DNA of 64,000 nucleotides, from NCBI GenBank assembly GCA_041650615.1, contig JBAZKU010000001.1, positions 185,216-249,215 on the forward strand, read 5' to 3'. The translations under genes were made by a program, and so were the position numbers. Each line of letters begins with the position of its first letter. Position 1 is the first letter of the stretch. Below are positions 1,227 to 62,650 of this stretch, piece after piece. The notes beneath the pieces are model-generated. The model searched no databases. It had not been told where the DNA came from and saw nothing but the letters and a program-made list of their open reading frames with translations. The DNA is from Minisyncoccota bacterium. GTDB lineage: Bacteria; Patescibacteriota; Minisyncoccia; Phycocordibacterales; UBA9973.

Positions 1227-1486
1227 ATATTTTTATTTTCTTTATCTTCTTTCTTTATCCTGACTGCATATTTTTTTACAGCTTTTACGATACCATAAGA
1301 TGAAATTAAAAAAGCTAAAATAACAGAGCCTATAAACATCCATGGTTTTGTGCCGTAATGACTATCAAGAGCTTTGCCTCCTATAACCGCTAATATTATC
1401 GGCACTGCAATCCAAGTGGAAATTTCACTAAAAATTTCAAAAGCCGGCTTCCACCAGATTTTGTTGTTATTTTTATTGTTTTCCAT
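1223..1486 (-). CDS. small two-TM membrane protein, AtpI/AtpZ-like (ATP synthase gene 1 family) by position
   Basis: 87 aa with two hydrophobic helices, immediately upstream of atpB in the same orientation. Its start codon directly abuts the tRNA-Ile 3' end. Confidence 0.4.
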
Positions 1487-1487
1487 G

Positions 1488-1560
1488 TGGGCGTGGTAGG
1501 AATCGGACCTACGGCCTCTGTCTTATCAGGACAGCGTTCTACCACTGAACTACACGCCCT
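1488..1560 (-). tRNA. tRNA-Ile (anticodon GAT)
   Basis: Reverse complement GGGCGTGTAGTTCAGTGGTAGAACGCTGTCCTGATAAGACAGAGGCCGTAGGTTCGATTCCTACCACGCCCA. Cloverleaf with anticodon loop CTGATAA. Confidence 0.9.
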
Positions 1561-1622: not shown

Positions 1623-1696
1623 GAAATCTACACGACCCAATAAAAATATAACAAAAATAGTAATTTTACGCAAATTGCAAAAATTAAAGAACAATA

Positions 1697-1772
1697 TTTT
1701 TGCCGGTACGGATTTTTGAAGCTTAAAAAATCCTGAAATTGGCTCGCCGTCGCTCGCCAAACCCCTTAAAAA
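1697..1772. repeat. ~77-nt intergenic element, copy 1 (hairpin GGATTTTT-N8-AAAAATCC plus direct repeat GGCTCGCC-N3-GCTCGCC)
   Basis: Near-identical to 62539..62615. Both copies lie in the same orientation, upstream on the minus strand of a transcription unit (tRNA-Ile/atp operon here, gap there). Flanks are also similar (about 1684..1790). Confidence 0.8.
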
Positions 1773-1795
1773 CATTATTCTTCACTTTTTTTATA

Positions 1796-3343: not shown

Positions 3344-3357
3344 AAAATTTTATTAAA

Positions 3358-3462
3358 ATAGCGGGATTCTTATTTCTGGGGTCGCTGTCTGGGCTTACTA
3401 GCCCAGCGCTCACTCTCGCGCCGTCGCGCTGCTAGAGTCCCCATAAACAAGAATCCCGCTAT
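3358..3462. repeat. 105-nt hairpin element: 14-bp AT-rich inverted flanks (atagcgggattctt/aagaatcccgctat) around a 75-nt GC-rich core
   Basis: Sits between the prfA start and rpmE stop. The core shares GGGTCGCTG and CTCGCG motifs with the GC core inserted in rplY (5715..5738). Confidence 0.7.
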
Positions 3463-3468
3463 TTTTAC

Positions 3469-3699
3469 TTACTTCTTAGCTTTCTTTACAGCAGATGCAG
3501 AAGCAGCTCGGCGCTTATTAAAGCGTTCTACGCGTCCGGCAGTATCCATAACCTTTTCATTGCCAGTATAGAAAGGGTGACATTTACTACAAATTTCTAC
3601 TTTGATTTCAGGCATTGTTGAACCAACTTCAAAAACCGCTCCGCAGGCGCAAGTAGCTTTGGTATTTATACTATATTTTGGATGTATGTCTTTTTTCAT
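3469..3699 (-). CDS. rpmE: 50S ribosomal protein L31
   Basis: MKKDIHPKY..Cxx[11 protein letters not shown] is a classic L31 zinc-ribbon. Confidence 0.9.
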
Positions 3700-3817
3700 C
3701 CCGTTAGAGATAGGAAATCTTTAGATTTCCGTTTCTTAATTAAATTCTATTAAATAAACAAATTTCAACCTTACATAAAATAAATCCCGCTAATTAACCA
3801 AAGAAATCTCTAACGGG
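3699..3817. mobile_element. MITE-like element with 13-bp TIRs (tcccgttagagat/atctctaacggga) and a TCAT target-site duplication
   Basis: Perfect TIRs at 3699..3711 and 3805..3817. TSD tcat at 3696..3699 and 3820..3823; the left TSD copy contains the rpmE start codon. AT-rich interior. Confidence 0.75.
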
Positions 3818-3846
3818 ATTCATCTCCTCAAAAGATTATCACAATT

Positions 3847-5222: not shown

Positions 5223-5954
5223 TTATTTTTCTTCTCCTTTTTCTTCAGTCGCTTCCGTGGCAACTTCAACTTCTCCTCCTTCTTCCTCTTTCTTGCCTTT
5301 CTTTTCAACTTCAATTTCAGACAAATCCGGAGGTGCTACAACTTCTTCTTTTTCTTCTACTTGAAGAACTATGGAAGCTACAACATCATGCTCATTCGCA
5401 ATAACAATAACTCCGGCTGGTAATTTTATATCGGAAATAAAAATCTGGTTTTCTACTGTTTCAAGTTTGGATATGTCAACTTCCAGACTATGCGGAAGAT
5501 CTTTTGGCAATGCTTCAACTTCCACTTCATGAAGAACCTTAACAAGATTCCCTAATCCATTTTTTACAGCATTGGAAATGCCGATAAATTCAAGCGGAAC
5601 TTTAACTTTTATCTTCTTATTCATATCCACAACCAGAAAATCCACATGTATCGGTTCTTCCGTTACCGGATGCACCTGCACTTCGTGAATAAGCGCGTCA
5701 ACCCCGTTAGAGATAGAGGGTCGCTGCGAGCCCTCGCGATCTCTAACGGGGTCAACATTATTATCACCTATAGCTATTTTTATAGTGGAAGATTCTCCAG
5801 CTTCCCGCCAGATTTTTTTAAAATCAACAATTGATATGGAAATAGAAGTAGCAGTCTTGCCTGTTCCATAAAAAACAGCAGGGATTTCCCCTGTTTTCCT
5901 TAAAGTATCCAAATTAATACCTTCATTTCTCTTTTTAGCCTTGATTACAAACAT
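5223..5954 (-). CDS. rplY: 50S ribosomal protein L25 / general stress protein Ctc, with an 18-aa in-frame insertion and acidic C-terminal tail
   Basis: L25 N-domain (AVFYGTGK..) and beta-barrel motifs (HVDFLVVD). The insertion PVRDREGSQRPSISNGVD is encoded by the palindromic element at 5702..5751. Confidence 0.8.
   Translation of the reverse strand: MFVIKAKKRNEGINLDTLRKTGEIPAVFYGTGKTATSISISIVDFKKIWREAGESSTIKIAIGDNNVDPVRDREGSQRPSISNGVDALIHEVQVHPVTEEPIHVDFLVVDMNKKIKVKVPLEFIGISNAVKNGLGNLVKVLHEVEVEALPKDLPHSLEVDISKLETVENQIFISDIKLPAGVIVIANEHDVVASIVLQVEEKEEVVAPPDLSEIEVEKKGKKEEEGGEVEVATEATEEKGEEK
5702..5751. mobile_element. MITE-like element inside rplY: TIRs ccccgttagagat/atctctaacgggg around a GC core, flanked by a gtcaa/tcaac duplication
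   Basis: 13-bp perfect TIRs at 5702..5714 and 5739..5751. The core agagggtcgctgcgagccctcgcg is GC-rich. Element plus TSD is 54 nt, a multiple of 3, and is translated. Confidence 0.75.
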
Positions 5955-6950: not shown

Positions 6951-8426
6951 TTATTTTAGCAATTTTTTCAGTGTTTCAATAACAATTTGCGGATTCGCGC
7001 TACCCTTGCTTTCTTTTATAACTTTTCCAACTAGAGACATTATAGCATTTTCTTTGCCAGCTTTATATACGGCAACAACTTCAGAGTTTTCTGAAATTAC
7101 TTTCTCCACGACAGCTTTAATTACACTTTCATCGTTTTTCTGCAATAAACCTTTTTCTGTAGCAATTTTGAGTGGAGACTCATTTTTTAATACAATTATC
7201 GCTAAAATATCTTTCGTTACTCGAGATGAAATTTTACCCTCGGCAGCAAGATTTATCAGTTCGGCAAAGTTTTCAGCATTCGGACGTTGGACGTCTGAAT
7301 TATTCTTTTTAAGACCTAAGTAATCAGAAGTAATGTAATTAGAAGCAAGTTTTACTTTCTCTTGTTCTTTTAAAATTTCAGATACTTCTTCAAACCATTG
7401 ACCCAATTCTTTATCATTAATGTAACTTTCTATATCCTCATCTTTAATTCCAAAATCTTTTTTATATCTCGCGCGTTTTTCTGCCGGTAGTTCCGGTAAT
7501 TCTTCTTTTATTTTTTTCAAATCAAAAGCTTCGTGTAAATACATTTTGGGTAAATCCGGTTCCGGGAAATACCTATAATCATGACTTGATTCTTTTTTTC
7601 TTTGAGAAAATGTTTTTTGCTTCCCATCGTCCCATCCCCTGGTTTCCTGCACTATTTCGTTTTCTTTTCCATCCTCCAAAAGTTTTACCATTCTATCCAA
7701 TTCAAATTTAATCGCTTTTTCAACACTCTTAAACGAATTTAAATTTTTCACTTCTACCTTCGTACCCAATTTATTTTTATCTTCCGAAACTGAAATGTTT
7801 GCTTCCACTCTCATCTCGCCTTTTTCCATATTCGCTTCGGACACTTCTAGATACCAAAGGATAAGCTGTAATTCTTTGGCAAAATCGGATGTGGTTTTAG
7901 CGGCGCTTTCTGCATCATCAAAACTATGAGGCTCAGTAACAAGTTCCATTAATGGCACACCTGCACGATTAAAATCAACAAGAGAATAACCATTTTCCCA
8001 CATGTCAGACATGTGAGTTTCCACATGTCTGACATGTGGGAAATCTATATGTTTATTATTAGCTGTGTCTTCTTCTAAATGAATACGAGTAATGTCAAAA
8101 TCAGCCAATTTTCCGCCGAAAACTATCGGATATTTATATTGTGAAATCTGAAAGCCTTTTGGGATGTCAGGGTAAAAATAATTTTTGCGATCAAATTCGG
8201 TAAAATCCGCAATTTTTCCACCAATAGCCAATCCAACTTTTATGACATTTTCTATCGCTTTTTTATTGATTACCGGCAAAGCCCCTGGGTGAGCCATACA
8301 AACAGGACAAATATTTACATTCGGTTTTTCTTCGTCTGGGTCATTCTTACAATCACAAAACATTTTCGTCTGCGTTTTCAACTCCGCATGTACTTCCAAA
8401 CCAATTGTTGGGTAATACTTACTCAT
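6951..8426 (-). CDS. gatB: Asp-tRNA(Asn)/Glu-tRNA(Gln) amidotransferase subunit B
   Basis: GLEVHAEL, FCDC..CPVC, GYSLVDFNRAGVPLMELV, and a C-terminal GatB/YqeY domain. Contains an in-frame perfect hairpin insert at 7998..8040. Confidence 0.9.
   Translation of the reverse strand: MSKYYPTIGLEVHAELKTQTKMFCDCKNDPDEEKPNVNICPVCMAHPGALPVINKKAIENVIKVGLAIGGKIADFTEFDRKNYFYPDIPKGFQISQYKYPIVFGGKLADFDITRIHLEEDTANNKHIDFPHVRHVETHMSDMWENGYSLVDFNRAGVPLMELVTEPHSFDDAESAAKTTSDFAKELQLILWYLEVSEANMEKGEMRVEANISVSEDKNKLGTKVEVKNLNSFKSVEKAIKFELDRMVKLLEDGKENEIVQETRGWDDGKQKTFSQRKKESSHDYRYFPEPDLPKMYLHEAFDLKKIKEELPELPAEKRARYKKDFGIKDEDIESYINDKELGQWFEEVSEILKEQEKVKLASNYITSDYLGLKKNNSDVQRPNAENFAELINLAAEGKISSRVTKDILAIIVLKNESPLKIATEKGLLQKNDESVIKAVVEKVISENSEVVAVYKAGKENAIMSLVGKVIKESKGSANPQIVIETLKKLLK
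7998..8040. repeat. 43-nt perfect hairpin (two 19-nt arms of cccacatgtcagacatgtg around a 5-nt loop) in frame inside gatB
   Basis: Arms are exact reverse complements, and each arm is also internally palindromic. Encodes about HVRHVETHMSDMWE, which is absent from typical GatB. Confidence 0.8.
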
Positions 8427-8434: not shown

Positions 8435-9487
8435 TTATACCTTTTTCTTTAAAATTTTCACTAATTCATCTTTGAGAGTTTTTACCGATTTATCGTCATA
8501 TAAAGAAAGCGCAAAAACTTTTTTGGGCCTGCCTGCGCAGGCAGGAATCTTCTCAAATTCTTTTTTCTTTTTGTCTATGATTTTTTCATTTTCTACCATG
8601 TCAGATTTTGTAAGAATAATAATTTCATCTTTTTGGGATAGGCCTTCTTCTCCCAAATCTAAATTCTTGTCATATTTTTCCAATTCCTTTCTTACAACCT
8701 TATAATTTTTCATCATCATAGATAAATTTCCCGCCCCGTAGGAAGCTTGCTTTCCTTCGGGGTCAAACGATATCAGATGCGCAATCATTTTAGTTCGTTT
8801 TATATGTCGTAAAAATTTAACACCAAGTCCCTTTCCCGTATTTGCTCCTTCTATCAACCCTGGGATATCGGCAATCGTGTATCCGTAAAAATCGCCCAAA
8901 TTCGGGTCAAGCGTAGTAAATTCATAATCTCCTATTTTTGCCTCAGCGTTTGTTATGACATTGAGCAATGAAGATTTACCGGCATTGGGCAATCCAACTA
9001 ATCCAATATCCGCAAAAAGTTCCAACTCTATATGAAAATTTCCATGTTCTCCTTCCATTCCCGGCCGCCATTCTTTTGGAGTCGTATTGGTAGAACTTTT
9101 AAAATGTTCATTGCCAAACCCCCCATATCCGCCTTTCAAAAGCAAAACTTTTTGCCCTTCTTCCAGTAATTGCCATTGCTCATCCGTTTCCAGGTTAGTG
9201 ATAATGGATCCTATCGGCAATTCTAAAAAAAAGTCATTCCCTTTTTTGCCGTGTAAACTTTTTTTACCTCCATCTTCTCCTCGTCCGGCGCTAAAACTTT
9301 TTTTGGCTTTGTATTTTGAAAGTATATGCACATCGCGGACAGCTTGCGCATAAAAATCTCCGCCACGTCCACCGTCGCCTCCTGCCGGTCCGCCTTTGGG
9401 CACAAATTTTTCTTGTCGCCAGCGAACTACTCCGTCGCCACCGCGACCCGCTTCTGCGTATATTTTTATTTCATCTATGAAGGCCAT
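8435..9487 (-). CDS. obg: GTPase Obg/CgtA
   Basis: Obg fold N-terminus (GGDGGRGG) and G-domain (GLPNAGKSSL, DIPGLIEGA). Carries two in-frame palindromic inserts at 8528..8545 and 8734..8762. Confidence 0.9.
   Translation of the reverse strand: MAFIDEIKIYAEAGRGGDGVVRWRQEKFVPKGGPAGGDGGRGGDFYAQAVRDVHILSKYKAKKSFSAGRGEDGGKKSLHGKKGNDFFLELPIGSIITNLETDEQWQLLEEGQKVLLLKGGYGGFGNEHFKSSTNTTPKEWRPGMEGEHGNFHIELELFADIGLVGLPNAGKSSLLNVITNAEAKIGDYEFTTLDPNLGDFYGYTIADIPGLIEGANTGKGLGVKFLRHIKRTKMIAHLISFDPEGKQASYGAGNLSMMMKNYKVVRKELEKYDKNLDLGEEGLSQKDEIIILTKSDMVENEKIIDKKKKEFEKIPACAGRPKKVFALSLYDDKSVKTLKDELVKILKKKV
8528..8545. repeat. 18-nt perfect GC palindrome cctgcctgcgcaggcagg in frame in obg
   Basis: Self-complementary. 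Encodes PACAGR near the Obg C-terminus. Confidence 0.7.
8734..8762. repeat. 29-nt imperfect palindrome ccccgtaggaagcttgctttccttcgggg (copy 1) in frame in obg
   Basis: Second copy at 60127..60156. Encodes PEGKQASYG. Confidence 0.75.
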
Positions 9488-9586
9488 GTAAAATTAAGAA
9501 AATAAAAATTTTAAGAGTCGTGGGTTCCCTGTCCTCATGGACTCCGAGGGCGAAGGCTCAAAAATTTTTGATTTTCTTAATTTTAC
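9488..9586. repeat. palindromic element spanning exactly from the stop codon of the upstream gene to the obg start codon: 25-bp AT-rich inverted flanks around a GC core (gtgggttccctgtcct..gactccgagggcgaag)
   Basis: Inverted flanks gtaaaattaagaaaat(a)aaaaatttt and the reverse complement. Core is homologous to the cores at 54223..54273 and 31336..31366. Confidence 0.75.
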
Positions 9587-10479
9587 ACCGAAAGTGCTAA
9601 TTCTGCTAATTTAATAGCTCCTTCTTTGGTTTTTGCCACAGCCATAAAAAGCCCTCTGTGGCAAAATACTGCATCAGAAACACCCGTGATTTTTTGCAAC
9701 TCTTCATCTCGCAACCCCGCCCAAGATTCCGGTAAATTCTTTCTATTTTTAAAAGTTTTCGGGTCCTCTCTAACCGCTTTTATCCCCCAAGTATTAGTGG
9801 TTCTCGGATAAATTATAAAAAAGGGCTCAGGAAAATTATTTAGCATATTCTCGTAAGGATAATCTTCGTCTAAAATAATGATTCTTTTATCTTTCGTATT
9901 TTGGTAAATTGATATTACTTTTTCTTCCGCCAAAATAGAATCTTTAGCTTGGATAATCTCTCTCGACAAAATTTCCTTGGCGAAATTTACACATTTTAAA
10001 AACATTTCATCTTTACTTAAGTCAGTTTCGCGCCAAGTCGGACGCATGGCTAAAAAAAAGTGTTGGATAAAATAAGGAGAAATATTATATTTATTTTCCA
10101 CTAAATCAAAACCGTTATCAAAAGCATCCACAGGAGCAACAAGCCGTGTATCTATTAACTTTGCCGCTTTTTTTGATCCAGTTAATTCTTCACCGAACTT
10201 CTTCCAAACTAAGCCAAAAGATGAATATAGGATTCCGATTTCCCCTTTCTCTTTGAAACCTATTTGATGATGGTCAAATCTATTTGTTTTTTCATCATAA
10301 ATTCCGCCCACATCAAAAACATAATCGCCATTCTTTATTATTTCTTCATCGCGCGTGCGGATTATTTCAAGACTTTCACCTTTTTTTTCTAACATTAAAG
10401 AAAGCGCAGCTGCGGCAAAAATATCATCTGCGTGGAAAGAACCATTATGTGTAATTAATTTTTTACTGTTTGTTTCCAT
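9583..10479 (-). CDS. MYG1/UPF0160 family metal-dependent hydrolase
   Basis: THNGSFHADD N-terminal motif; about 300-aa family with an HD-like fold. Confidence 0.7.
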   Translation of the reverse strand: METNSKKLITHNGSFHADDIFAAAALSLMLEKKGESLEIIRTRDEEIIKNGDYVFDVGGIYDEKTNRFDHHQIGFKEKGEIGILYSSFGLVWKKFGEELTGSKKAAKLIDTRLVAPVDAFDNGFDLVENKYNISPYFIQHFFLAMRPTWRETDLSKDEMFLKCVNFAKEILSREIIQAKDSILAEEKVISIYQNTKDKRIIILDEDYPYENMLNNFPEPFFIIYPRTTNTWGIKAVREDPKTFKNRKNLPESWAGLRDEELQKITGVSDAVFCHRGLFMAVAKTKEGAIKLAELALSV

Positions 10480-22645: not shown

Positions 22646-22681
22646 AATTTAAATCCTAACCCTTTTTTGCAAAAAAGTCTA

Positions 22682-22789
22682 CTGAAAATTATAAAATAAA
22701 TCTTTCTCACGGCTCGCACTCGAACCTGACAATGGTTCACGAATCTAATATTGCGTATGCCGAAGAAAGACTTACTTTATAATTTTCAG
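22682..22789. repeat. third copy (reverse orientation) of the conserved 55-nt core found twice in leuS, flanked by a different ~25-bp inverted repeat (ctgaaaattataaaataaatctttc / gaaagacttactttataattttcag)
   Basis: Core cacggctcgcactcgaacctgacaatggttcacgaatctaatattgcgtatgccgaa is about 90% identical to the reverse complement of 50508..50562. Confidence 0.8.
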
Positions 22790-22832
22790 AAGCAAGCTTG
22801 CCTATACATTATCTATATGATAATCTACCTAA

Positions 22833-29542: not shown

Positions 29543-29692
29543 ATGAGTGAAGAAAAATGCCCTGTTTGTGGGAATAACCCTTGCACTTGTCCACCAGCTC
29601 CAGAAACCCCTGTTCAACCAACTCCAGAAACCCCTACCCAACCAACTCCAGAAACCCCTACCCAACCAACTCCAGAAACCCCTATTCAATAG
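29543..29692 (+). CDS. small Cys-rich peptide (49 aa) with four tandem PTPETP(T/V/I)Q repeats
   Basis: Sequence MSEEKCPVCGNNPCTCPPAPETPVQ(PTPETPTQ)x2PTPETPIQ. The DNA carries 4x24-nt tandem repeats at 29594..29689. A clean terminator follows. All three frames are open because of the repeat; this frame has the ATG and the CxxC..CxC motif. Confidence 0.45.
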   Translation: MSEEKCPVCGNNPCTCPPAPETPVQPTPETPTQPTPETPTQPTPETPIQ

Positions 29693-29704
29693 AAAGAAAA
29701 ATAA

Positions 29705-29731
29705 AACAGCCCCTTCAACGGGGCTGTTTTA
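29705..29731 (+). terminator. intrinsic terminator
   Basis: cagcccc-ttcaa-cggggctg followed by TTTT. Confidence 0.8.
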
Positions 29732-30696: not shown

Positions 30697-31842
30697 ATGA
30701 AAATCTTAAGCATTGAAACATCCTGCGATGACACAGGAATAACTTTGATGGAGGCAAAAGGAAGAGTAAATAATGCTTCTTTTAAAATCTTGGATAATGT
30801 CTCAAATTCGCAAATAAAAATCCATGCGGAATATGGCGGAGTATATCCGATGCTTGCAAAACGAGAACATATAAAAAATTTACCGATACTTTTAGAACAA
30901 GTACTTAAAAAGACTAAGCTTGATAAAAAGAAAAAGCCAGTGGATTTAATAGCTGTAACTTATGGACCGGGATTAGAACCAGCACTTTGGACAGGAATAG
31001 TTTTCGCCAAAGAACTGGCAAAAAAGTGGAATATACCGCTTATACCAGTGAATCATATGGAAGGACATATCCTATCGGCATTTGGAAAACACAAAGGAAA
31101 CTTTAAAATCCCCAAAATGGATTTTCCGGTACTATCTCTCCTTGTTTCCGGCGGACACACGGAACTTGTGCTCATAAAAAAATGGATGCAATATAAAATT
31201 ATCGGCGAAACATTGGATGATGCAGCCGGAGAAGCTTTTGATAAGGTAGCTAGGATGATGGGTTTCCCCTATCCCGGCGGACCAAAAATTTCAGAGTTGG
31301 CAGAAAAAGGGAGGGAGAAAATAGTTTTTAAAGGGACTCCGCAGGGCGACGGCCCGAGGACCGAGCAAATTTTTCAGCAGAGAAATTGCGACCCTTTAAA
31401 AATTGATTTTCTTCCTCCCTTTCTCCCCCGCCCGATGATTTACAGTAAAAATTTTGATTTTTCTTTTTCGGGACTGAAAACCGCCGTGCTTTATTTAATT
31501 AAAAAAATCGAGAAATTGAACGAGGAAACCAAAGAAAAAATCGCTTTGGAATTTGAAAATGCAGTAGTAGAAACTCTTGTCTATAAAACAATAAAGGCAA
31601 AAGAAAAATACAAGGTAAAAACTATCATTGTGGCCGGCGGGGTTTCTTGCAATAAGCACTTGCAAAAACAAATGAAAAAAACTATTGGCAAAGATATTGA
31701 ACTTTTTTTCCCGGAAAAAGAACTAACGGGAGATAATTCAATAATGGTAGGCATAGCCGGATATTTGAATTATCAAAAAAATAAAAATAAAATTCTTAAA
31801 ATAGACGTTATAAAGGCAAAAGGTAATTTACGCTTTAAATAG
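30697..31842 (+). CDS. tsaD: tRNA N6-adenosine threonylcarbamoyltransferase TsaD, with a ~31-aa in-frame insertion
   Basis: MKILSIETSCDDT.. and HMEGH metal motif. The insertion KGTPQGDGPRTEQIFQQRNCDPLKIDFLPPF lies before the conserved LPRPM..DFSFSGLKT. Confidence 0.85.
   Translation: MKILSIETSCDDTGITLMEAKGRVNNASFKILDNVSNSQIKIHAEYGGVYPMLAKREHIKNLPILLEQVLKKTKLDKKKKPVDLIAVTYGPGLEPALWTGIVFAKELAKKWNIPLIPVNHMEGHILSAFGKHKGNFKIPKMDFPVLSLLVSGGHTELVLIKKWMQYKIIGETLDDAAGEAFDKVARMMGFPYPGGPKISELAEKGREKIVFKGTPQGDGPRTEQIFQQRNCDPLKIDFLPPFLPRPMIYSKNFDFSFSGLKTAVLYLIKKIEKLNEETKEKIALEFENAVVETLVYKTIKAKEKYKVKTIIVAGGVSCNKHLQKQMKKTIGKDIELFFPEKELTGDNSIMVGIAGYLNYQKNKNKILKIDVIKAKGNLRFK
31326..31422. repeat. GC-rich insertion in tsaD, related to the gactccgagggcg core family, with flanking ttttaaaggg/ccctttaaaa inverted repeat
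   Basis: ggactccgcagggcgacggcccgagg resembles the cores at 9513..9559 and 54223..54273. Followed by a pyrimidine tract. Confidence 0.5.
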
Positions 31843-40076: not shown

Positions 40077-41324
40077 TTAAAAAAATTTATTTTTTGAAAT
40101 TTTGATTAGTCTATCGTATTTCACCTTCCTTTCCGGTTTTAATGGAGCGCCGGATTTTAAGCCAAAACAGCCAAAAGCGTAGGCGAGATCAGCGATAAAA
40201 TCATCGTCTGTCTCCCCGCTTCGATGAGAAATAATCAGTTCAATCCCGTTTTCTTTAGCCAATTTCATTGTTTCAAGTGTTTCGGAAAGTGTGCCGATTT
40301 GATTTGGTTTTATAATCATGGCATTGATGCTTCCTTTTTCTATCGCTTTTGCTAAAAGATTTCTATTAGTGACAGTTAAATCATCTCCTACTACCAAAAG
40401 ACCTTTCTTCAATCCAAATAAAGTTCTATTACTTTCCTTCAATTTTCTGAAACTTTCAAAATTTTCTTCATCAAAAGGGTCCTCAATGGAAAACAGTTTG
40501 AATTCATCAATCAAAGAGCCATAAATTTTTATTAATTCTTCTTTTAAAATATACTCACCATCAATTTTATATTTTCCATTCTCATAAAAAGATGAAGCGG
40601 CCACATCCAGAGCAAGTTTTACTTTTTTTTCTAAATTATTTTCTTTAATCGCTCTTTTTAAGAATTCCAACGGTTTTTTTATATCATCTATCTTTGGCGC
40701 AAAACCTCCTTCATCTCCCAAAATAATTGATTCCACGCCCAATTCTTCTAAAATTATTTCTTTCAGAGAATTTTGTATTTTGATTCCTATTTCAACCGCT
40801 TTGTCCGCATCGTTAACAATAGGCACAACATGATATTCTTGAAAGGCCAGATTATTATCAGTATGCTTCCCCCCTTCTATTAAATTCATATATAAATAAG
40901 GGATTTTTCTGGAAAATTTTATTTTAGCAAGCGTTCTCAGGTATTCAAAAGTTTCCAGATTAAAAACTTTAGCTGCCACTTTGGCGCAAGCAATACTTAC
41001 ACCAATAATTGCATTTCCACCTAAATTGTCTTTATTGGAAGTCCCATCTAATTTAATCATGATTCCATCAATCACTTCTTGATTCAGCACATTCTGGCCA
41101 ACCAAGGCGGGAGCAATTATATTATTTACTTTCTCTATGGCTCCTTTTATTCCTTTCCCATCCGCATCTCTCAATTCATGCGCTTCGTGAGTACCTGTAC
41201 TTGCCCCCGACGGCACAGCAAAACTACCGTATTTATCGCCAGCCCACATTGTTACTTTAATAGTCGGATTCCCTCGTGAATCTTTTATTTCTTCTGCTAT
41301 AATTTTAGTGATTTTTTTATCCAT
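40077..41324 (-). CDS. eno: enolase
   Basis: Full-length enolase (SGASTGTHEA, IKPNQIGTLSET). Start codon lies within the TSD of the upstream MITE. Confidence 0.95.
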   Translation of the reverse strand: MDKKITKIIAEEIKDSRGNPTIKVTMWAGDKYGSFAVPSGASTGTHEAHELRDADGKGIKGAIEKVNNIIAPALVGQNVLNQEVIDGIMIKLDGTSNKDNLGGNAIIGVSIACAKVAAKVFNLETFEYLRTLAKIKFSRKIPYLYMNLIEGGKHTDNNLAFQEYHVVPIVNDADKAVEIGIKIQNSLKEIILEELGVESIILGDEGGFAPKIDDIKKPLEFLKRAIKENNLEKKVKLALDVAASSFYENGKYKIDGEYILKEELIKIYGSLIDEFKLFSIEDPFDEENFESFRKLKESNRTLFGLKKGLLVVGDDLTVTNRNLLAKAIEKGSINAMIIKPNQIGTLSETLETMKLAKENGIELIISHRSGETDDDFIADLAYAFGCFGLKSGAPLKPERKVKYDRLIKISKNKFF

Positions 41325-41403
41325 CCCGTTAGAAATTTATGCTTAATTATTAATACTCAACTTTAATATCCCGTTTTCAGTATTTGTGTTATTTCTAACG
41401 GGA
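41324..41403. mobile_element. MITE-like element with TIRs tcccgttagaaat/atttctaacggga and a 5-bp TCCAT target-site duplication
   Basis: TIRs at 41324..41336 and 41391..41403. TSD tccat at 41320..41324 and 41404..41408; the left copy contains the eno start codon. Confidence 0.75.
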
Positions 41404-41412
41404 TCCATTTTT

Positions 41413-50030: not shown

Positions 50031-52619
50031 CTAACTTAGTATGTTAATAACCCTATTTTTTACATAAATGACTCTTTTTATATCTTTATTCAGATGTTTT
50101 AAAACATTTTCATCTGTAAGAGCTTTTTTCTTCACTTCATCTTCTATCTCATCCATTTGGATCAAAATTTCAGATCTGACTCTACCATTTACTTGCACGG
50201 CAATTTTTATTTCCTGGTCTTTTACTAAATCCTCATCCCATTTTGGCCAAGCTGAAAGATGAATACTTTTTTTCTCTCCTAAATCATACCAAATATTTTC
50301 AGTAATGTGTGGAGCAAATGGAGCTAAAATTTGCAAGAATTTTTTGTAATCTTCCGCGTCTATATTTTCCACTTTTTCCATTTCTGTCGCGAGTATCATC
50401 ATGGCGGAAATCGCAGTATTAAAACGCATATTTTCTATATCTTCCGAAACTTTTTTAATTGTTTTGTGTAGTAGCTTTTTCAAAGATTGCGAAGCAGAAC
50501 TTTTTTCGGCATACGCAATATTAGGTTCGTGAACCACATTCAGGTTCGAGTGCGAGCCGTGAAAAAGTTGCTGCTTCGCAATCTTTTCTGCTATTCTCCA
50601 AACTTTTTCTATAAATCTTCTAGAACCAATAATACTTTCCGTGCTCCAGGCAACTGCTTCCTCAAACGGTCCCATAAACATTTCATAGACACGCAAAGTG
50701 TCTGCGCCGTAAGTTTTAACAATATCGTCTGGATTTACGACATTACCTAAAGATTTTGACATTTTTACCCCTCCTTCGCCCAAAATCATCCCATGAGAAG
50801 TTCTTTTCTGATAAGGTTCTACTGTTGGCACAAGTTTTAAATCATATAAAAACTTATGCCAAAAACGTGAATACAATAAATGAAGAGTGGTGTGTTCCAT
50901 TCCCCCGTTATACCAATCAATCGGCGTCCAATATTTTAATTTTTTCTTATCTGCAAAGATTTTATTATTTTTAGGGTCCGTATATCTTAAATAATACCAA
51001 GAGCTTCCAGCCCAGTTCGGCATCGTGTCTGTTTCCCTTTTTGCTTTGCCGCCGCATTTCGGACATTTTGTATTTACCCATTTTGAAATGGAGGCAAGCG
51101 GAGATTCGCCCGTATCTGTCGGTTTATAACTTTTTACTTCTGGTAATTTTATCGGCAAGTCCTTATCCGGCACCGGTACCAGTCCGCATTTTTCGCAATT
51201 AACCAACGGTATCGGTTCACCCCAGTATCTCTGTCTTGAAAAGACCCAATCTCTTAATTTGAATTTTGTGACAATTTTCCCACCGACAAATTCCGTGATT
51301 TTTTTTCGGGCTTCTTCAGAACCCATGTAATCAAATTGTTTAGAAGAATGTATTAAAATACCTTCCCCATCATAAAAATCTTTTGGTTCTCCTTCCAATA
51401 AATCTGCATCAGTAATAACCTGTCTTATCGGCAAATTGTATTTCTTAGCAAAAGCAAAATCTCTTTCATCATGAGCAGGAACTGCCATAATGGCGCCTGT
51501 GCCATAATCCGGCAATACATAGTCAGCAATAAAAACAGGCACTTCTTCATCATTTGCCGGATTTATTGCTTTAATGCCTTTTAACTCCACCCCCGTTTTT
51601 TCTTTTTCATCAGCCGTTCTTTCAATTTCAGATTTTTTCTTTGCCTTTTTTATATATTCTTCAACTTCTTTTTTATTTTTAACTTGCCCTAAAAATTTTG
51701 TCACCAACGGATGTTCAGGAGCAAGTACGACATAAGTCGCTCCAAAAAGCGTATCCGCGCGCGTGGTGAATACTTTTATTTTAAAAGATTGCGAAGCAGT
51801 GCTTTTTTCGGCATACGCAATATTAGGTTCGTTAACCATATTCAGGTTCGAGTGCGAGCCGTGAAAAAGCATCTGCTTCGCAATCTTTATCTTAAAAACA
51901 ATCTCGCTTCCTTCCGACTTTCCTATCCAGTTTCTTTGCTGAATTTTTACCCGCTCCGGATAGTCAACCAAATCCAAATCTTTATCCAATCTATCCGCGT
52001 ATTTTGTAATTGCCAGCATCCATTGTTCTTTTTCTCTCTTTTCCGTCTTACTTCCGCAACGTTCGCAAATTCCGCCTGACGCCTCCTCGTTCGCCAAGCC
52101 GATTTTACAGGAAGGGCACCAATTTATATAAGATTTCGCTTTATATGCCAAACCTTTTTTGAAAAATTGCAAAAATATCCATTGCGTCCATTTATAATAT
52201 TTAGGGTCGGTAGTATTTATTTCCCGGGTCCAATCAAAAGAAATGCCAAGCATTTTTATTTGCCTACGGAAATTGTCCGTATTTTTTTTAGTTACAATTG
52301 CCGGATGAATACCTGTTTTAATAGCATAATTTTCTGTTGGTAAACCAAAGGCATCCCAACCGATAGGATAAAGTACATTTAAACCTTCCATTCTTTTTTT
52401 TCTAGAAATAACATCCATTCCGATATATGGCCTCGGATGTCCTACGTGCAGTCCATCGCCGGATGGATAAGGAAATTCAATTAGGGCGTAAAATTTACGC
52501 CCTAATCGCCCCGTAGCGAGTTTTGCTCCACTACCGGGGCTCGTGGTATTGTAAATTCCGCTCTTCTCCCATTCTTTTTGAACCCTTAATTCGATTTTTT
52601 TATGATCATATTCCTTCAT
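50031..52619 (-). CDS. leuS: leucine--tRNA ligase carrying two 35-aa in-frame copies of a repeat element plus an N-terminal insert
   Basis: HVGH (PYPSGDGLHVGHP) and KMSKS motifs. Start trimmed to MKEYDHKK. Two near-identical segments ..LFHGSHSNLN(V/M)V(H/N)EPNIAYAEKS.. disrupt conserved blocks. Confidence 0.9.
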   Translation of the reverse strand: MKEYDHKKIELRVQKEWEKSGIYNTTSPGSGAKLATGRLGRKFYALIEFPYPSGDGLHVGHPRPYIGMDVISRKKRMEGLNVLYPIGWDAFGLPTENYAIKTGIHPAIVTKKNTDNFRRQIKMLGISFDWTREINTTDPKYYKWTQWIFLQFFKKGLAYKAKSYINWCPSCKIGLANEEASGGICERCGSKTEKREKEQWMLAITKYADRLDKDLDLVDYPERVKIQQRNWIGKSEGSEIVFKIKIAKQMLFHGSHSNLNMVNEPNIAYAEKSTASQSFKIKVFTTRADTLFGATYVVLAPEHPLVTKFLGQVKNKKEVEEYIKKAKKKSEIERTADEKEKTGVELKGIKAINPANDEEVPVFIADYVLPDYGTGAIMAVPAHDERDFAFAKKYNLPIRQVITDADLLEGEPKDFYDGEGILIHSSKQFDYMGSEEARKKITEFVGGKIVTKFKLRDWVFSRQRYWGEPIPLVNCEKCGLVPVPDKDLPIKLPEVKSYKPTDTGESPLASISKWVNTKCPKCGGKAKRETDTMPNWAGSSWYYLRYTDPKNNKIFADKKKLKYWTPIDWYNGGMEHTTLHLLYSRFWHKFLYDLKLVPTVEPYQKRTSHGMILGEGGVKMSKSLGNVVNPDDIVKTYGADTLRVYEMFMGPFEEAVAWSTESIIGSRRFIEKVWRIAEKIAKQQLFHGSHSNLNVVHEPNIAYAEKSSASQSLKKLLHKTIKKVSEDIENMRFNTAISAMMILATEMEKVENIDAEDYKKFLQILAPFAPHITENIWYDLGEKKSIHLSAWPKWDEDLVKDQEIKIAVQVNGRVRSEILIQMDEIEDEVKKKALTDENVLKHLNKDIKRVIYVKNRVINILS
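50482..50586. mobile_element. 105-nt palindromic element in leuS, copy 1: 25-bp inverted flanks aaagattgcgaagcag.. around a 55-nt conserved core
   Basis: 16-bp perfect IR aaagattgcgaagcag/ctgcttcgcaatcttt. Length is a multiple of 3 and is translated. Confidence 0.85.
51784..51888. mobile_element. 105-nt palindromic element in leuS, copy 2 (same orientation, about 1.3 kb from copy 1)
   Basis: About 93% identical to 50482..50586, with the same IR flanks. Confidence 0.85.
52490..52545. repeat. GC-rich imperfect palindrome (ccccggtag..ctacgggg) encoding an extra SPGSGAKLATGRLGRK segment near the LeuS N-terminus
   Basis: A GC island in frame. The segment is absent from canonical LeuS N-termini. 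Confidence 0.45.
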
Positions 52620-53685: not shown

Positions 53686-54651
53686 TTAGCACCAAATAGC
53701 CGTATTTGAAAGCGGAATAATGCGATTGTTTGATTTTTCAAGCAAGCATAATTCACCGGCTGAAACTTCCCCTTTCAAGCCAGTCATAATATTTTCCAGC
53801 GCATAACCTAAAGAGAATGAAGACAAATCTGTCGCATAAGAATTTAAAATAATAAAAAGCGGTTTGTCGCTTAAAATTTTTCGCACCCCTTCTAGAAGCT
53901 TCGGCAAATCTTTTTCTATGTCCCAAGTTTCCCCTTTTGGTCCGCGGCCGAATTTCGGCGGGTCCATTATCACAGCATCATACTTGTTTCCCCTTTTTTC
54001 TTCACGTTCAATAAATTTTAAAACATCTTCACAGATAATTCGCATTGGCATATCTCCCAATCCAGAAATTTTTTGATTTTCTTTTGCCCATTCGGTGGAA
54101 GATTTTGAAGCGTCTATGTGTGTGACTTCCGCGCCGGCACGAAGAGCAAAAAGACTGGCCACCCCGGTGTAACCGAATAAATTTAAGAATTTAATTCTAG
54201 GCGAGCTTGAGGAAGAATTTTTTAGAAACGTGTGGGTCCCCTGTCCTTTTGACTCCGAGGGCGCAGTTTCAGAAAAATTCTTCCTCAAGCTCGCCATTCC
54301 GATTTTTTCTTCTATAAAATCCCAATGAACTGCCTGTTCGGGGAAAAAACCTAAATGTCTGAAAGGTGTAGGTGAAGCCAAAAATTTGATACCTTTATAC
54401 GACATTCCCCATTTATCTCCAATTTTTTTGTTCATTTTCCAGCCACTCTTAGCGCCAGTCTTAGAACTCCAAAACTTTCCGTCTGCTTTTCCCCACTCTT
54501 TGCTTCCCAGAGTTTTATTCCAAACAGCCTCCTCATAAGGACGTATAAAAGTATATGGACCAAACTTTTCTAATTTCTCTCCCTCTCCTGTATCCAGAAG
54601 CTTATAATCAACCCAATCTTTTGCACAAAAAATTTTAATTTCTTTTTTCAT
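53686..54651 (-). CDS. class I SAM-dependent RNA methyltransferase (RlmI/YccW-like) with a 32-aa in-frame insertion
   Basis: SAM-binding LNLFGYTGVASLFALRAGA..VTHIDAS, with a PUA-like N-terminus. The insertion ASLRKNFSETAPSESKGQGTHTFLKNSSSSSP is encoded by the palindromic element at 54200..54295. Confidence 0.65.
   Translation of the reverse strand: MKKEIKIFCAKDWVDYKLLDTGEGEKLEKFGPYTFIRPYEEAVWNKTLGSKEWGKADGKFWSSKTGAKSGWKMNKKIGDKWGMSYKGIKFLASPTPFRHLGFFPEQAVHWDFIEEKIGMASLRKNFSETAPSESKGQGTHTFLKNSSSSSPRIKFLNLFGYTGVASLFALRAGAEVTHIDASKSSTEWAKENQKISGLGDMPMRIICEDVLKFIEREEKRGNKYDAVIMDPPKFGRGPKGETWDIEKDLPKLLEGVRKILSDKPLFIILNSYATDLSSFSLGYALENIMTGLKGEVSAGELCLLEKSNNRIIPLSNTAIWC
54200..54295. mobile_element. 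96-nt palindromic element in the methyltransferase gene: 23-bp perfect inverted flanks ggcgagcttgaggaagaattttt around a GC core gtgggtcccctgtcct..gactccgagggcgcag
   Basis: Flanks are exact reverse complements. The core is about 85% identical to the core at 9513..9559. 96 nt = 32 codons. Confidence 0.8.
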
Positions 54652-61437: not shown

Positions 61438-62529
61438 TTAAATAGTTCCTCCTGTTTTTATAACATGCTCGACCAATGTATAGGCATACCCCATTTCATT
61501 ATCATACCAACCCAATACTTTTACCAAATTGCCATCAACTACGCGGGTCATTTCCAAGTCGGCAATGGATGCATGCGATTCCCCTAAAATATCAGAAGAA
61601 ACCAATGGTTCCTTGGTAACAGCAAATACTTTTTCCCAACGCTTGTCTTTTGACGCTTTTTCTAAAATCGCATTAACTTCTTCTTTGGTGGTATTTTTCT
61701 TTGAAATAAAAGTGACATCTACAATTGACCCAGCTACTACCGGCACGCGAACAGAAATACCATCAAATAATCCTTTTAATTCCGGAAAAGCCTCCGTCAC
61801 AGCGATAGCTGCACCGGTTGAACTTGGAACTATGTTTTGCGCAGCCGCGCGTCCCTCGCGCAAATCCTTTTTACTTGGCCCGTCCACAAGCGCTTGAGAA
61901 GCTGTATATCCATGAACTGTATTTAAAATCGCTTTTTCTATCCCCAAAGCTTCATGTAAAATTGCAATTAGAGGGCTTGCGGCATTGGTGGTACAAGATG
62001 CATTAGAAGTAATATCGCAAGTACCGAATTTATTTTCATTAATTCCCAACAATATTGTTTCTCCTTTTACACTTCCCTCATTTCCCCCGCCTAGACTCGC
62101 GCTAGTCGAGGCTGGTTTAGAAGGCGCAGAGATCACAACTTTTTTTGCACCTTGTTCAATATGAAATTTTGCCTTGTCATAAGAAGTAAACAGTCCGGTT
62201 GATTCAACCACCACATCAATATTCAAATCTTTCCAAGGAAGTTTCGTGGTGTCTTTTTCAGAAATGAATTTAATCTTTTTTCCGTCAATTATCAAATCAG
62301 CGCCGGAAACTTCTACGGAATGATTCCAATTTCGGTAAACAGTATCATGACGCAATAAGTAAGCTAAACTTTCTATGGAACCTAAATCATTTACTGCCAC
62401 TATCTCAAGCTCGGGTTTTTCCCAGGCTACTTTTAAAAATGCCCTGCCTATCCTGCCAAAACCATTAATAGATATTTTGATCTTTTTCATAATAATATTA
62501 TAGCACATAATATATGTCCAAAAAGGCAA
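61438..62529 (-). CDS. gap: glyceraldehyde-3-phosphate dehydrogenase with an ~18-aa in-frame insertion
   Basis: NGFGRIGR Rossmann motif and catalytic SNASCTTN. The insertion PASTSASLGGGNEGSVKG before the conserved block is encoded by the repeat at 62086..62130. Confidence 0.9.
   Translation of the reverse strand: MPFWTYIMCYNIIMKKIKISINGFGRIGRAFLKVAWEKPELEIVAVNDLGSIESLAYLLRHDTVYRNWNHSVEVSGADLIIDGKKIKFISEKDTTKLPWKDLNIDVVVESTGLFTSYDKAKFHIEQGAKKVVISAPSKPASTSASLGGGNEGSVKGETILLGINENKFGTCDITSNASCTTNAASPLIAILHEALGIEKAILNTVHGYTASQALVDGPSKKDLREGRAAAQNIVPSSTGAAIAVTEAFPELKGLFDGISVRVPVVAGSIVDVTFISKKNTTKEEVNAILEKASKDKRWEKVFAVTKEPLVSSDILGESHASIADLEMTRVVDGNLVKVLGWYDNEMGYAYTLVEHVIKTGGTI
62086..62130. repeat. 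GC-rich repeat, family cccgcctWgact.., in frame in gap
   Basis: cccgcctagactcgcgctagtcgaggctggt matches 312..342 (in the atpB tail) at 28 of 31 positions. Confidence 0.8.
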
Positions 62530-62538
62530 AGAATCAAA

Positions 62539-62615
62539 TTTTTGCCGGTACGGATTTTTTGAAGCTTAAAAAATCCTGAAATTGGCTCGCCGTCGCTCGC
62601 CAAACCCCTTAAAAA
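62539..62615. repeat. ~77-nt intergenic element, copy 2 (hairpin plus GGCTCGCC direct repeats), between gap and dnaE
   Basis: About 97% identical to 1697..1772. Followed on the minus strand by TGTGCTATAAT 6 nt before the gap ATG. Confidence 0.8.
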
Positions 62616-62650
62616 TTTATTCTTTGCCTTTTTATGTTAATATAGTAAAA

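Follow-up and report, generated by a model that had tools for sequence, protein, structure and literature searches.

How can a repeat keep one conserved centre when the arms around it differ from copy to copy and yet still pair with each other? The question arises at the spacer between a MYG1/UPF0160 family gene and obg, which is filled by a palindrome of this kind, here called family B. The window analysed (the whole stretch of DNA, 64,000 nucleotides long) holds two family B copies, at 9487-9587 and 54200-54295 (Table 1). The original prediction, made from the window alone, was that they belong to a genuine repeat family in which the core is conserved and the complementary arms vary. This was borne out: the check for further core copies beyond the window, an exact-pattern scan, found 76 at 74 loci in 37 assemblies, with arms that are site-specific yet complementary.

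Table 1. Hairpin elements of the window and the genes that border or host them.
Feature	Position	Strand	Basis or remark
Family B hairpin filling the MYG1-obg intercistronic gap	9487..9587	-	Arm pairing, motif matches, orthologous copies, empty spacers
obg (GTP1_OBG + MMR_HSR1)	8435..9487	-	Start codon (ATG) adjoins the element's 3' arm
MYG1/UPF0160 family gene	9583..10479	-	Stop codon within the 5' arm of the element
Family B hairpin, subfamily with inner stem GAAAC/GTTTC	54200..54295	-	In frame in the RlmI-like methyltransferase gene
RlmI-like SAM-dependent methyltransferase (PF10672), host of in-frame family B	53686..54651	-	Domain match, homologue comparison
Family G hairpin, in frame in tsaD	31303..31425	+	33-nt arms at 79%; inner flanks 31326-31335 and 31392-31401
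tsaD, host of the family G element	30697..31842	+	Comparison with solved TsaD
Family A ('leuS family') hairpin, 105 nt, in frame in leuS	50482..50586	-	L010 and L050 carry family B at that protein position
Second family A hairpin, 105 nt, in frame in leuS	51784..51888	-	Site also used by several families
Family A core on different arms, greA-ybeY divergent spacer	22679..22792	+	Core match
Family C hairpin upstream of gap	62520..62633		Core with GCCGTCGC..CCCC module
Decayed second family C copy	1679..1790		Similarity to family C
Hairpin element 'I1'	3355..3465		3414-3447, within the core, matches the tsaD family G core in reverse complement

A conserved tip on a site-specific stem

The conserved unit of family B, AAAAATTTTAAGAGTCGT-GGGTYCCCTGTCCTTATGACTCCGAGGG-CGAAGGCTCAGAAATTTTT, measures about 65 nt, so that the 47-nt core first proposed was too short, and it forms the tip of a near-perfect palindrome of 90-105 bp. 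This apical unit has a higher G+C content and stands on a long stem whose outer 10-20 bp are copy-specific. Exact matches to the two motifs GTGGGTYCCCTGTCCT and GACTCCGAGGGCG are confined in the window to 9520/9540 and 54232/54251; two or more matches were obtained in only 2 of 100 shuffles. The inner stem exists in covarying variants (GAGTC/GGCTC, GAAAC/GTTTC, GCGTC/GGCGC and GAATC/GATTC). When the arms are delimited by local alignment, which allows bulges, the elements range from 87 to 126 bp and many stems lack any mismatch.

In the copy at 9487-9587, arms at 9487-9517 and 9557-9587 enclose a core with inner stem (9518-9556); the gene-sense (minus) strand reads CCUUCGCCCUCGGAGUC-loop-GGACAGGGAACCCAC. 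Perfect inverted repeats had been described around the cores. They are present at 54200-54295, where the arms are perfect over 23 nt, or 93% complementary over 30 nt, but those at 9487-9587 are only near-perfect: 87% complementary over 31 nt or, by local alignment, 26 paired positions without mismatch and one 1-nt bulge.

Arm identity between family B copies, 0.66-0.75 in the zone 10-19 nt away from the core match, drops to 0.33 in the zone at 20-29 nt. Only this last zone is site-specific, and in it complementarity within a copy is 0.90 against 0.49 in the control. The arms are thus copy-specific, as proposed, in their outer part, which varies by site, but not throughout: subfamilies have inner arms in common and differ in their outer arms (16-20 nt of arm recur at non-orthologous loci), and orthologous copies also have arms in common. 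Nine copies in the MFTY01 genome have nine different outer arms.

Distribution of family B

Essentially all hosts of family B are Candidatus Nomurabacteria/Paceibacterota (CPR), with up to 10 copies per assembly (MFTY01). The groundwater sites of Hainich and Rifle are among the sources of the loci. An HMM search of the collected loci and the window gave 101 matches, 17 of them without the exact pattern, and 16 of these 17 are full-length variants. No match to the core was found in the viral contigs scanned. At gathering score, Rfam 15 recognised only tRNAs in the window, and at E<=10 the segment 9440-9640 gave generic miRNA-hairpin noise (no more than 25 bits, where the cut-offs are 70-250). 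Our literature search on palindromic elements or MITEs in CPR, Parcubacteria or Nomurabacteria found no description of such repeats. Most family B copies are intergenic and some lie inside genes. In Candidatus Nomurabacteria genomes, small non-coding palindromic repeats make up at least ten families, of which family B is one.

Family B is strongly oriented relative to its host genes, by 48:2 in co-directional spacers and by 10:1 inside genes, a bias that is not predicted for passive junk. Stop-codon avoidance was rejected as its source, as the consensus has one open frame in each orientation. Moreover, the core is at least 90% conserved in 37 assemblies and the arms have diverged to background, which speaks against neutral decay; a conserved core with diverged arms requires continuing turnover, conversion between copies, or function.

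Gain and loss at orthologous sites

The palindrome at 9487-9587 had been proposed to span exactly from the MYG1 stop codon to the obg ATG. It does reach both, from the A of the ATG (9485-9487, minus strand) to the stop codon (9583-9585), but it runs 2 nt past the latter. In relatives, about 20 of these spacers are empty (1-5 nt), 14 hold family B, eight hold family C, which fills the spacer in other species, and two hold hairpins lacking a core; orthologous family B copies are found in L017, L029, L064, L093, L096, L098 and L129. Elements have landed in this 1-5 nt gap. Could the arms be copies of the adjacent host sequence? For most of the arm this was rejected, the ancestral gap being 1-5 nt and the arm unlike the start of obg. 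Since the gap is so short and at least 16 nt of outer arm are not copied from the flanking coding sequences, outward growth cannot explain the whole arm, and part of it must travel with the element.

The second copy, at 54200-54295, was said to be translated in frame, with which the evidence is consistent. Its 96 nt keep the reading frame and encode residues 119-151 (MASLRKNFSETAPSESKGQGTHTFLKNSSSSSP) of the PF10672 methyltransferase; about 23 of these residues are missing from the solved homologue 2igt, and the structure model shows a helix extension followed by coil, a low-confidence loop (pLDDT 55-58). Among 120 orthologues, 31 are empty at this site, 25 carry family B, eight carry family A and one carries both; the rest hold at least six other insert types.

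In tsaD, the inner flanks TTTTAAAGGG/CCCTTTAAAA are present as described, but the palindrome extends beyond the 31326..31422 element proposed, to 31303-31425. The insert adds about 32 residues relative to the solved TsaD 8iey, which lacks it, and the site is empty in some species and holds varying inserts in others. The suggested kinship of its core with that of family B holds for one 19-nt module (31335-31353; 17 of 19 positions matching, plus one gap), a score reached by none of 5000 shuffles. Relative to the host gene this module is reversed compared with family B. The similarity does not extend beyond it, and the 5' half of family B is absent from tsaD. The GCCGTCGC..CCCC module of the family C core is common to families G and I1.

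Two sites in LeuRS show the same pattern of gain and loss as the TsaD and RlmI-like sites. All four are empty in some species and elsewhere occupied by family B or by one of at least eight unrelated cores. The architecture is indeed that of the leuS family, as had been noticed, and sites that family A occupies in some species are occupied by family B in others. Family A has one set of arms at three different sites: two in leuS and one in the RlmI-like gene of other species. The inserted residues are lineage-specific, as foreseen: close relatives have empty sites in the RlmI-like gene and TsaD and an empty MYG1-obg spacer, and unrelated bacteria do not carry the inserted peptides. Elements have been gained and lost at orthologous sites, and have landed in frame where the RlmI-like methyltransferase, TsaD and LeuRS have linkers or loops.

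Palindrome insertions that preserve the ORF are found in the RlmI-like gene, at both LeuRS sites and in other ORFs. The family B copies inside genes are read in at least two different frames (GQGTH versus DRGPTT), and thus family B has no conserved peptide. Judging by the preserved frames, ribosomes would read through these copies and the extra peptide would be tolerated. A translational bypass as in T4 gene 60 was rejected: matched codons for take-off and landing are lacking, as is a stop codon at the 5' junction.

Concerted arms and probable template switching

Differences between orthologous copies are mirrored on the two arms at 7 of 7 positions between the window and L077 copies, and at 5 of 5 between L010 and L050; likewise, an AA to TG change between I5 and I7 appears on both arms. 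In three cases (L077, tsaD and the 9487-9587 copy) the arms reach ancestral host codons. The L077 arm takes in the ancestral codons E-A-N, with an inverted copy of these on the other arm, and the outer 5' arm in tsaD overlaps the conserved ancestral codons E-K-G-R-E, mirrored as LPPFL. Orthologous copies differ in palindrome extent, which points to gradual growth. Furthermore, homologous arms can bear different cores: family B sense in L143, family B antisense in L084 and none in L094. A family C core sits in L085 on the same arms that lack a core in L147, and L096 (B) and L124 (C) have the first 20 nt of the spacer in common.

Template switching is known to homogenise the arms of inverted repeats, to expand them and to invert the spacer between them (PMC8794818, PMC8604942, PMC13100816, PMC7202029). 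Mirrored changes, expansion into host codons and core inversion on the same arms are all found here, and suggest that this mechanism has acted. We thus favour, with reasonable though far from full confidence, the reading that the hairpins are selfish insertions akin to RPEs and MITEs, whose arms are kept complementary and extended by template switching and which have no host function. The site-specific arms would then be a secondary property of a DNA palindrome: during replication, hairpin-templated switching would copy a change in one arm onto the other, and could also invert or delete the core and let the palindrome grow outward until it meets bases under constraint, for instance those of a stop codon, an ATG or conserved codons. 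Reuse of the few sites may reflect a preference for landing or exchange at a resident palindrome or at its A/T-run junction. The orientation bias of family B and the conservation of its core, given above, count against this reading.

At 72 palindrome boundaries, direct repeats, sought as target-site duplications, were as long as expected from shuffled partners and none exceeded 3 nt, and neither a transposase nor terminal inverted repeats for family B were found in the collected loci and the window. Mobility is thus deduced from the patterns of presence and absence only.

Alternative explanations

A bolder proposal, to which we give limited credence, is that the hairpins form a new mobile system: long-lived palindromic 'sockets' in operon spacers and permissive loops of essential genes, in which some 10-15 cores are exchanged, inverted, nested and lost. 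Mobility would here be defined by structure and need neither terminal repeats nor target duplication. It could proceed through a structure-specific DUF559/Vsr-like endonuclease followed by repair, or through template switching between hairpins at common A/T-run junctions, and the strongly oriented family B core might in addition be co-opted as an RNA signal.

That family B is in the first place a functional structured RNA of polycistronic mRNAs, with a protein-binding core serving processing, stabilisation or translational coupling, that it has spread or been recruited across operons and that the genic copies are by-products, seems improbable to us. Such a role would suit the orientation bias in spacers and genes, the conservation of the core across the 37 assemblies and the covarying inner stem. 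Intergenic copies also fill the entire gap from stop to start, so that the base of the stem juxtaposes stop codon and ATG; a gap that was ancestrally 1-5 nt also implies that translation was coupled, which a hairpin could preserve. However, the stems are perfectly Watson-Crick paired and not G-U tolerant. Of the mismatches, 19 would be G-U in the mRNA, fewer than the 44 that would be so on the opposite strand, and 68 are of other kinds; these counts are non-independent, the excess is on the antisense strand, and they lend no support to a sense-strand RNA structure. The consensus also folds better in antisense (-26.7 versus -12.3). Moreover, the MYG1-obg spacer may equally be empty or hold family C, an inverted family B or a hairpin lacking a core, family C shows no orientation bias, copies lie in frame within essential genes in several frames, and there is no Rfam match.

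We also judge it unlikely that the hairpins are non-autonomous kin of elements encoding DUF559/Vsr-like (PD-(D/E)XK) endonucleases. The nuclease would cut at empty sites or hairpins, with repair from a donor, and co-conversion falling with distance from the core would leave conserved cores, nested inner arms and site-specific outer arms. This would account for the steep drop in conservation (0.66-0.75 at 10-19 nt, 0.33 at 20-29 nt), for subfamilies with common inner and different outer arms, and for the use of the same sites by many families. Several species have at LeuRS site I7 an in-frame DUF559 domain of about 160 aa with 32-nt terminal inverted repeats, and L027 has two free-standing DUF559 ORFs between inverted repeats, one of which matches both halves of the family F hairpin; family F occupies family B sites. 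Sister families F and K share repeats with the elements encoding this predicted nuclease. Yet the halves of the family F repeat are joined by their ORF-distal ends, unlike in a simple internal deletion, no ORF-bearing family B copy (with separated half-cores) was found in the collected loci, and the 64-kb window holds no DUF559 gene. Homology of the family B core itself to the endonuclease-element repeats was rejected, as the similarity was not significant (P = 0.11 and 0.55).

Could the arms instead be made at insertion, the approximately 65-nt core inserting and fold-back synthesis copying one host flank as an inverted duplication? The boundary between conserved unit and site-specific arm is sharp, there is no direct target-site duplication, nine copies in MFTY01 all differ in their outer arms, and outer arms overlap ancestral codons in L077 and tsaD and the coding ends at 9487-9587. 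We nevertheless find this very unlikely: the ancestral MYG1-obg gap of 1-5 nt did not supply an arm of at least 16 nt that was not copied from the neighbouring coding sequence either, family A arms are identical at three different sites, family B subfamilies have 16-20 nt of arm in common at non-orthologous loci, and the variable extent of orthologous palindromes fits gradual growth. Finally, chance similarity, an assembly artefact or a selected peptide module, conceivable as long as the AT-rich, low-complexity window offered only two copies, can be dismissed, being refuted by the 76 further copies in independent assemblies and metagenomes, by the occupancy states of the MYG1-obg spacer, by a peptide that varies with the frame used, and by the intergenic position of most copies.

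Comparison with known palindromic elements

The selfish insertions that we favour have their nearest likeness in the RPEs of Rickettsia (Ogata et al. 2000, as summarised in PMC10969869), which are selfish palindromes lying in frame in genes. RPEs resemble the present hairpins as short non-coding palindromes of a reduced genome, with several coexisting families and copies also between genes. Many RPE copies lie in frame in housekeeping genes that are unrelated to one another, at positions where additional residues are tolerated, and are read through. Copies of one RPE family can be aligned from end to end and encode a conserved peptide in one frame. Here, in contrast, only the apical 65 nt or so are conserved, the outer stem is site-specific, frames vary and the host is a CPR bacterium, so that the likeness is one of features. 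To our knowledge, there is no description of RPEs in which many families repeatedly use one site at codon level.

With MITEs such as Correia/NEMIS, ERIC, RUP and BOX the hairpins share small size, multiple copies, a non-coding nature, a hairpin fold, a place between and sometimes inside genes, and presence/absence polymorphism (PMC10969869, PMC3184786); the copies described here are non-coding, 87-126 bp long and multicopy, with empty orthologous sites. Sister families F and K also have ORF-bearing relatives. By definition, however, MITEs end in conserved terminal inverted repeats and are flanked by direct target-site duplications (PMC10969869, PMC3184786). The termini of the present hairpins are their least conserved part (identity 0.33), conservation being central, and we found no target duplication beyond chance and no IS-type transposase partner.

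REP/BIME and REPIN-RAYT systems are similar as short palindromic repeats that crowd operon spacers. REPINs are long hairpins of two inverted units; REP stems are conserved with a variable loop or spacer, and REPs are extragenic by definition. The hairpins described here have a conserved apex and a variable stem, and also occur inside genes. Integron attC sites likewise conserve the structure of complementary arms over their sequence. In attC the ends (R and L boxes) are conserved and the centre is variable, and the sites are linked to cassettes and the IntI integrase. Here the centre is conserved, and no link to cassettes or IntI was seen.

Near-perfect inverted repeats within coding genes are also known from organelles, in Nematomorpha mtDNA (PMC6649704) and Volvox mtDNA and ptDNA (PMC2670323), where both arms are translated, as they would be here, and the stem stays perfect despite coding constraint. 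In Nematomorpha the arms both code for conserved protein segments and no mobile core is shared (PMC6649704), whereas our arms surround a conserved repeat core as additional sequence, in a bacterial host. The perfect stems, mirrored changes including indels, expansion and spacer inversion recall template-switch quasipalindromes (PMC8794818, PMC8604942, PMC13100816, PMC7202029). Template switching is, however, a general mutational process, and leaves conserved multicopy cores and their spread to new sites unexplained.

Significance

The genomes of CPR/Patescibacteria are among the smallest and most streamlined, and yet this lineage tolerates about ten 100-bp palindromes per 64 kb, at leuS, tsaD, gap and an rRNA methyltransferase gene among others. 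For annotation, the hairpins account for lineage-specific 'insertions' in conserved CPR proteins and help to account for length variation and for short spacers. Such inserts are repeat-derived and not functional domains, and work on protein families and structures should mask them. The hundreds of replicated sites amount to a natural experiment on how perfect hairpins originate, are kept up and extend, and they also gauge the tolerance of essential proteins for arbitrary peptides at fixed positions. If site reuse and core exchange, or the link to an endonuclease, prove true, they would add a form of DNA mobility defined by structure and, perhaps, a new structure-specific nuclease.

Family B hairpins combine a conserved core with variable, complementary arms

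The window is dense in housekeeping genes and has a G+C content of ~36%. Within it, two exact family B motifs occur only in two hairpins with the same core and different arms (Table). We scanned a species-representative genome collection with the pattern GGGTNCCCTGTCC-N3-6-ACTCCGAGGG and recovered 76 copies at 74 loci in 37 assemblies, essentially all of Candidatus Nomurabacteria/Paceibacterota; a single assembly (MFTY01) contained as many as 10. A profile HMM built from family B copies gave 101 matches in the collected loci and the window; 17 of these lacked the exact pattern, 16 being full-length variants. A scan of viral contigs gave no match and an Rfam search matched no family. Family B is a real, widespread family.

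The original prediction of a conserved core was correct but too short, the conserved unit being ~65 nt and including, besides an A/T-run junction, an inner stem with covariation among subfamilies (GAGTC/GGCTC, GAAAC/GTTTC, GCGTC/GGCGC, GAATC/GATTC). Identity between copies was 0.78-0.81 at 1-9 nt from the core match, 0.66-0.75 at 10-19 nt and, at background level, 0.33 at 20-29 nt. In this last zone, within-copy complementarity was 0.90 (control 0.49), which bears out the central observation that variable complementary arms surround a conserved core.

Most copies occupy the entire spacer of two co-directional genes; a minority lie within long ORFs. Orientation relative to the genes is strongly biased in family B, with GGGTYCCCTGTCC on the antisense strand in 48 of 50 co-directional spacers and 10 of 11 intragenic copies. 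No such bias was found when family C, a sister family, was tested. Intragenic copies are read in different frames (..GQGTH.. in the window copy, L056, L007, L008 and L026, ..DRGPTT.. in L010 and L050; L-numbers denote related loci), and therefore encode no conserved peptide.

In the MYG1-obg spacer the arms are 31 nt long and 87% complementary (26 paired positions and one bulge in local alignment). One arm contains the MYG1 stop codon (9583-9585), and the final base of the other is the A of the obg ATG. The methyltransferase copy is in frame, 96 nt long, and corresponds to residues 119-151; its arms are perfect over 23 nt, or 93% complementary over 30 nt. Inserted residues are absent from the solved homologues of the methyltransferase (2igt) and of TsaD (8iey). 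In the AlphaFold prediction for the window methyltransferase (mean pLDDT 84), the insert extends a helix and then continues as a low-confidence coil (pLDDT 55-58) immediately ahead of the first Rossmann fold strand.

Among the related loci, three family B-like copies are clustered in tandem in L034, and a copy in L072 holds a 21-nt nested insert (cgcctgcctgccggtaggcaaaa). Several contigs with Nomurabacteria-type genes and hairpins are publicly labelled Burkholderiales, Saccharibacteria or Smithella (L064/L074, JAMPXW01; several CAY*/CAZ* loci), and a protein 99% identical to the window LeuRS (P0241) is among such records; mis-binning or mislabelling is likely.

Coordinates of the features discussed (window positions unless a locus is named)
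Feature	Position	Strand	Context
Family B hairpin, 101 nt	9487-9587		between MYG1/UPF0160 gene and obg
MYG1/UPF0160 gene	9583-10479	minus	
obg	8435-9487	minus	
Second family B copy	54200-54295		in PF10672 RlmI-like methyltransferase gene
Family C copies	1679-1790; 62520-62633		
tsaD palindrome	31303-31425		family G
Shared GCC(G/T)TCGC module	3414-3447; 31335-31367; 62587-62613; 9540-9557		hairpin cores
14-nt-arm inverted repeats	3698-3819; 5701-5752; 41323-41404; 60879-60947		
Mini-hairpin CCCCGTAGGAAGCTTGCTTTCCTTCGGGG	8728-8762; 60121-60155		in obg; in ORF 59256-60173
Mini-hairpin CCTAGACTYGCRYTAGTCGAGG	312-342; 62086-62116		in ORF 273-1226; in gap
Perfect 22-nt palindrome, 6-nt loop	7994-8043		inside ORF 6951-8426
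Tandem 24-nt unit	29593-29712		
Family B-like tandem cluster	L034 3106-3315		
Family B copy with nested insert	L072 ~1439-1547		
LeuRS genes with DUF559 insert	L159 501-3830; L160 501-3923		
Free-standing DUF559 ORFs	L027 2150-2590; L027 6964-7440	plus; minus	

The same sites are emptied, filled and reused by different families

We compared the MYG1-obg spacer in 80 metagenomic obg loci. The gap is merely 1-5 nt in ~20 relatives (e.g. TAAATATG); family B fills it at 14 loci (11 in gene sense, 3 in the opposite orientation), family C at 8 in both orientations, and core-less hairpins at 2. Further spacers hold tandem AACTTTAT(G/A) or CCTAGTGCCTA-type repeats and no hairpin (L120, L125, L137, L139, L150; L082, L112, L142, L145). 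The family C copy of L148 carries a nested insert.

A similar picture emerged from the 120 closest orthologues of the RlmI-like protein, compared between HWDFIEEKI.. and ..IKFLNLFGYTG. The site is empty in 31, holds family B in 25, family A (the 'leuS' core) in 8 and a nested B+A element in 1, the remainder having inserts of six or more further, unrelated types. In the closest relative (81% identical) a different core, family D, sits on unrelated 23-bp perfect arms, and the right-hand junction falls on the very nucleotide used by the window copy. TsaD orthologues showed the same pattern of gain, loss and reuse at the position of the window insert, as did both LeuRS positions, occupied by family A in the window and by B, D-like, F, J, L and further families in other species.

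Arms change in concert and can extend into ancestral host sequence

Arm differences were mirrored on both arms in 7 of 7 cases between the window copy and L077, and in 5 of 5 between L010 and L050. An AA to TG change is present on both arms between the two leuS paralogues, and inspection of the copy listing showed a likewise mirrored indel between L016 and L039. Many stems have no mismatch at all. Palindromes also take in ancestral host sequence: the 5' arm of L077 begins in codons E-A-N, also present in empty-site orthologues, with the inverted copy on the 3' arm; the tsaD palindrome covers the conserved EKGRE codons, the mirrored copy of which reads as extra LPPFL; and that of the MYG1-obg spacer includes the stop codon and the start-codon base.

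Homologous arms enclose a family B core in sense in L143, in antisense in L084 and no core in L094; for family C, a core is present in L085 and absent in L147. The spacers of L096 (B) and L124 (C) begin with a common 20-nt stretch. Arms also travel with the element: those of family A recur at three different sites, and within family B subfamilies 16-20 nt of inner arm are shared at unrelated loci. No direct target-site duplication beyond chance was detected at element boundaries.

Hairpin cores share modules

The tsaD insert had been proposed to contain a related core. It does have a 19-nt module in common with family B (0 of 5000 shuffles reached the observed score), in opposite orientation relative to the host gene, but the element belongs to a family of its own, G, widespread among TsaD orthologues. 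The 19-nt module is also found in the 3355-3465 hairpin and in family C. A module, GCC(G/T)TCGC.C..(GGAGTCCC/CCCC)+TTAAA, is shared by the cores of four hairpin families that otherwise differ (I1, G, C and B), in varying orientation to the host genes. The recurrence suggests a common origin for the cores, or their assembly out of shared modules.

A possible link to DUF559 endonucleases

In some species, the LeuRS position of the second leuS hairpin of the window contains an in-frame DUF559/Vsr-like endonuclease domain of ~160 aa between 32-nt terminal inverted repeats (LeuRS proteins listed for inserts at this position: P0250, P0286, P0287, P0319, P0344). In other species this position holds an alpha/beta-hydrolase-like insert of ~196 aa or another of ~225 aa, and many also have a NUDIX domain in another part of LeuRS. 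Two free-standing DUF559 ORFs are present in L027; inverted repeats with a small G+C-rich palindrome in them flank each ORF. Those of the second ORF (GCACCCCTCAAGAGGGGAATT) match each half of the family F hairpin (..NSPLEEYPKGEV..STPSRKRATPQEGN..), which is found in LeuRS and RlmI-like genes, with the halves connected via their ORF-distal ends. A DUF559-type partner for family B was sought in the collected loci and none was found; the similarity of family B to the DUF559-element repeats is not significant. The link to mobility is a lead only.

Other repeats in the window

Another inverted-repeat family has conserved 14-nt arms, A(T/C)CCCGTTAGA(G/A)AT, separated by a variable 24-94 nt. At 41323 and 60879 one arm adjoins a minus-strand start codon (..TCTAACGGGATGG..) and therefore overlaps the ribosome-binding region. 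Two mini-hairpin repeats of ~30 nt were each noted in frame in two different genes, the CCTAGACTYGCRYTAGTCGAGG type encoding KPASTSASLGGGNEG. The 22-nt palindrome possibly represents a hairpin without a core, as in L094 and L147. Elsewhere, a 24-nt unit (ACCAACTCCAGAAACCCCTACCCA) is present in four to five tandem copies.

Discussion

Several features point to selfish insertions: elements come and go at orthologous sites, genomes contain many copies, some copies are nested and no peptide is conserved. The elements resemble MITEs as well as the Rickettsia palindromic elements that sit in frame within genes (PMC10969869).

Template switching at inverted repeats is documented to homogenise and expand arms and to invert spacers (PMC8794818, PMC8604942, PMC13100816, PMC7202029), and may have done all three in these hairpins. 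The arm behaviour fits this process, and the site-specific perfect arms would therefore be a consequence of the DNA palindrome. The 'exact' stop-to-start span could then reflect palindrome growth halted at constrained bases, and the best explanation for site reuse by many families would be that elements insert or are exchanged where a palindrome already resides.

Across 37 assemblies the core of family B is conserved, while its arms have diverged to background. This conservation and the strong orientation hint at some constraint, be it ongoing turnover, conversion among copies or a role at the RNA or DNA level. That family B is a functional RNA nevertheless seems improbable: the mismatch spectrum gives selection for structure on the mRNA strand no support (19 G-U-compatible mismatches in sense versus 44 in antisense), the antisense strand gives the better consensus fold, and the MYG1-obg spacer evidently works with any filling or none. 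Arms serving as a guide or recognition feature were set aside, as their behaviour fits template switching.

Full-text literature searches found no description of elements of this type in CPR/Patescibacteria. Whether site reuse and core exchange amount to a genuinely new mode of mobility is doubtful, if conceivable. Selfish palindromic repeats themselves are known; the novelty lies in their site-specific, co-evolving arms and in the reuse of the same sites.
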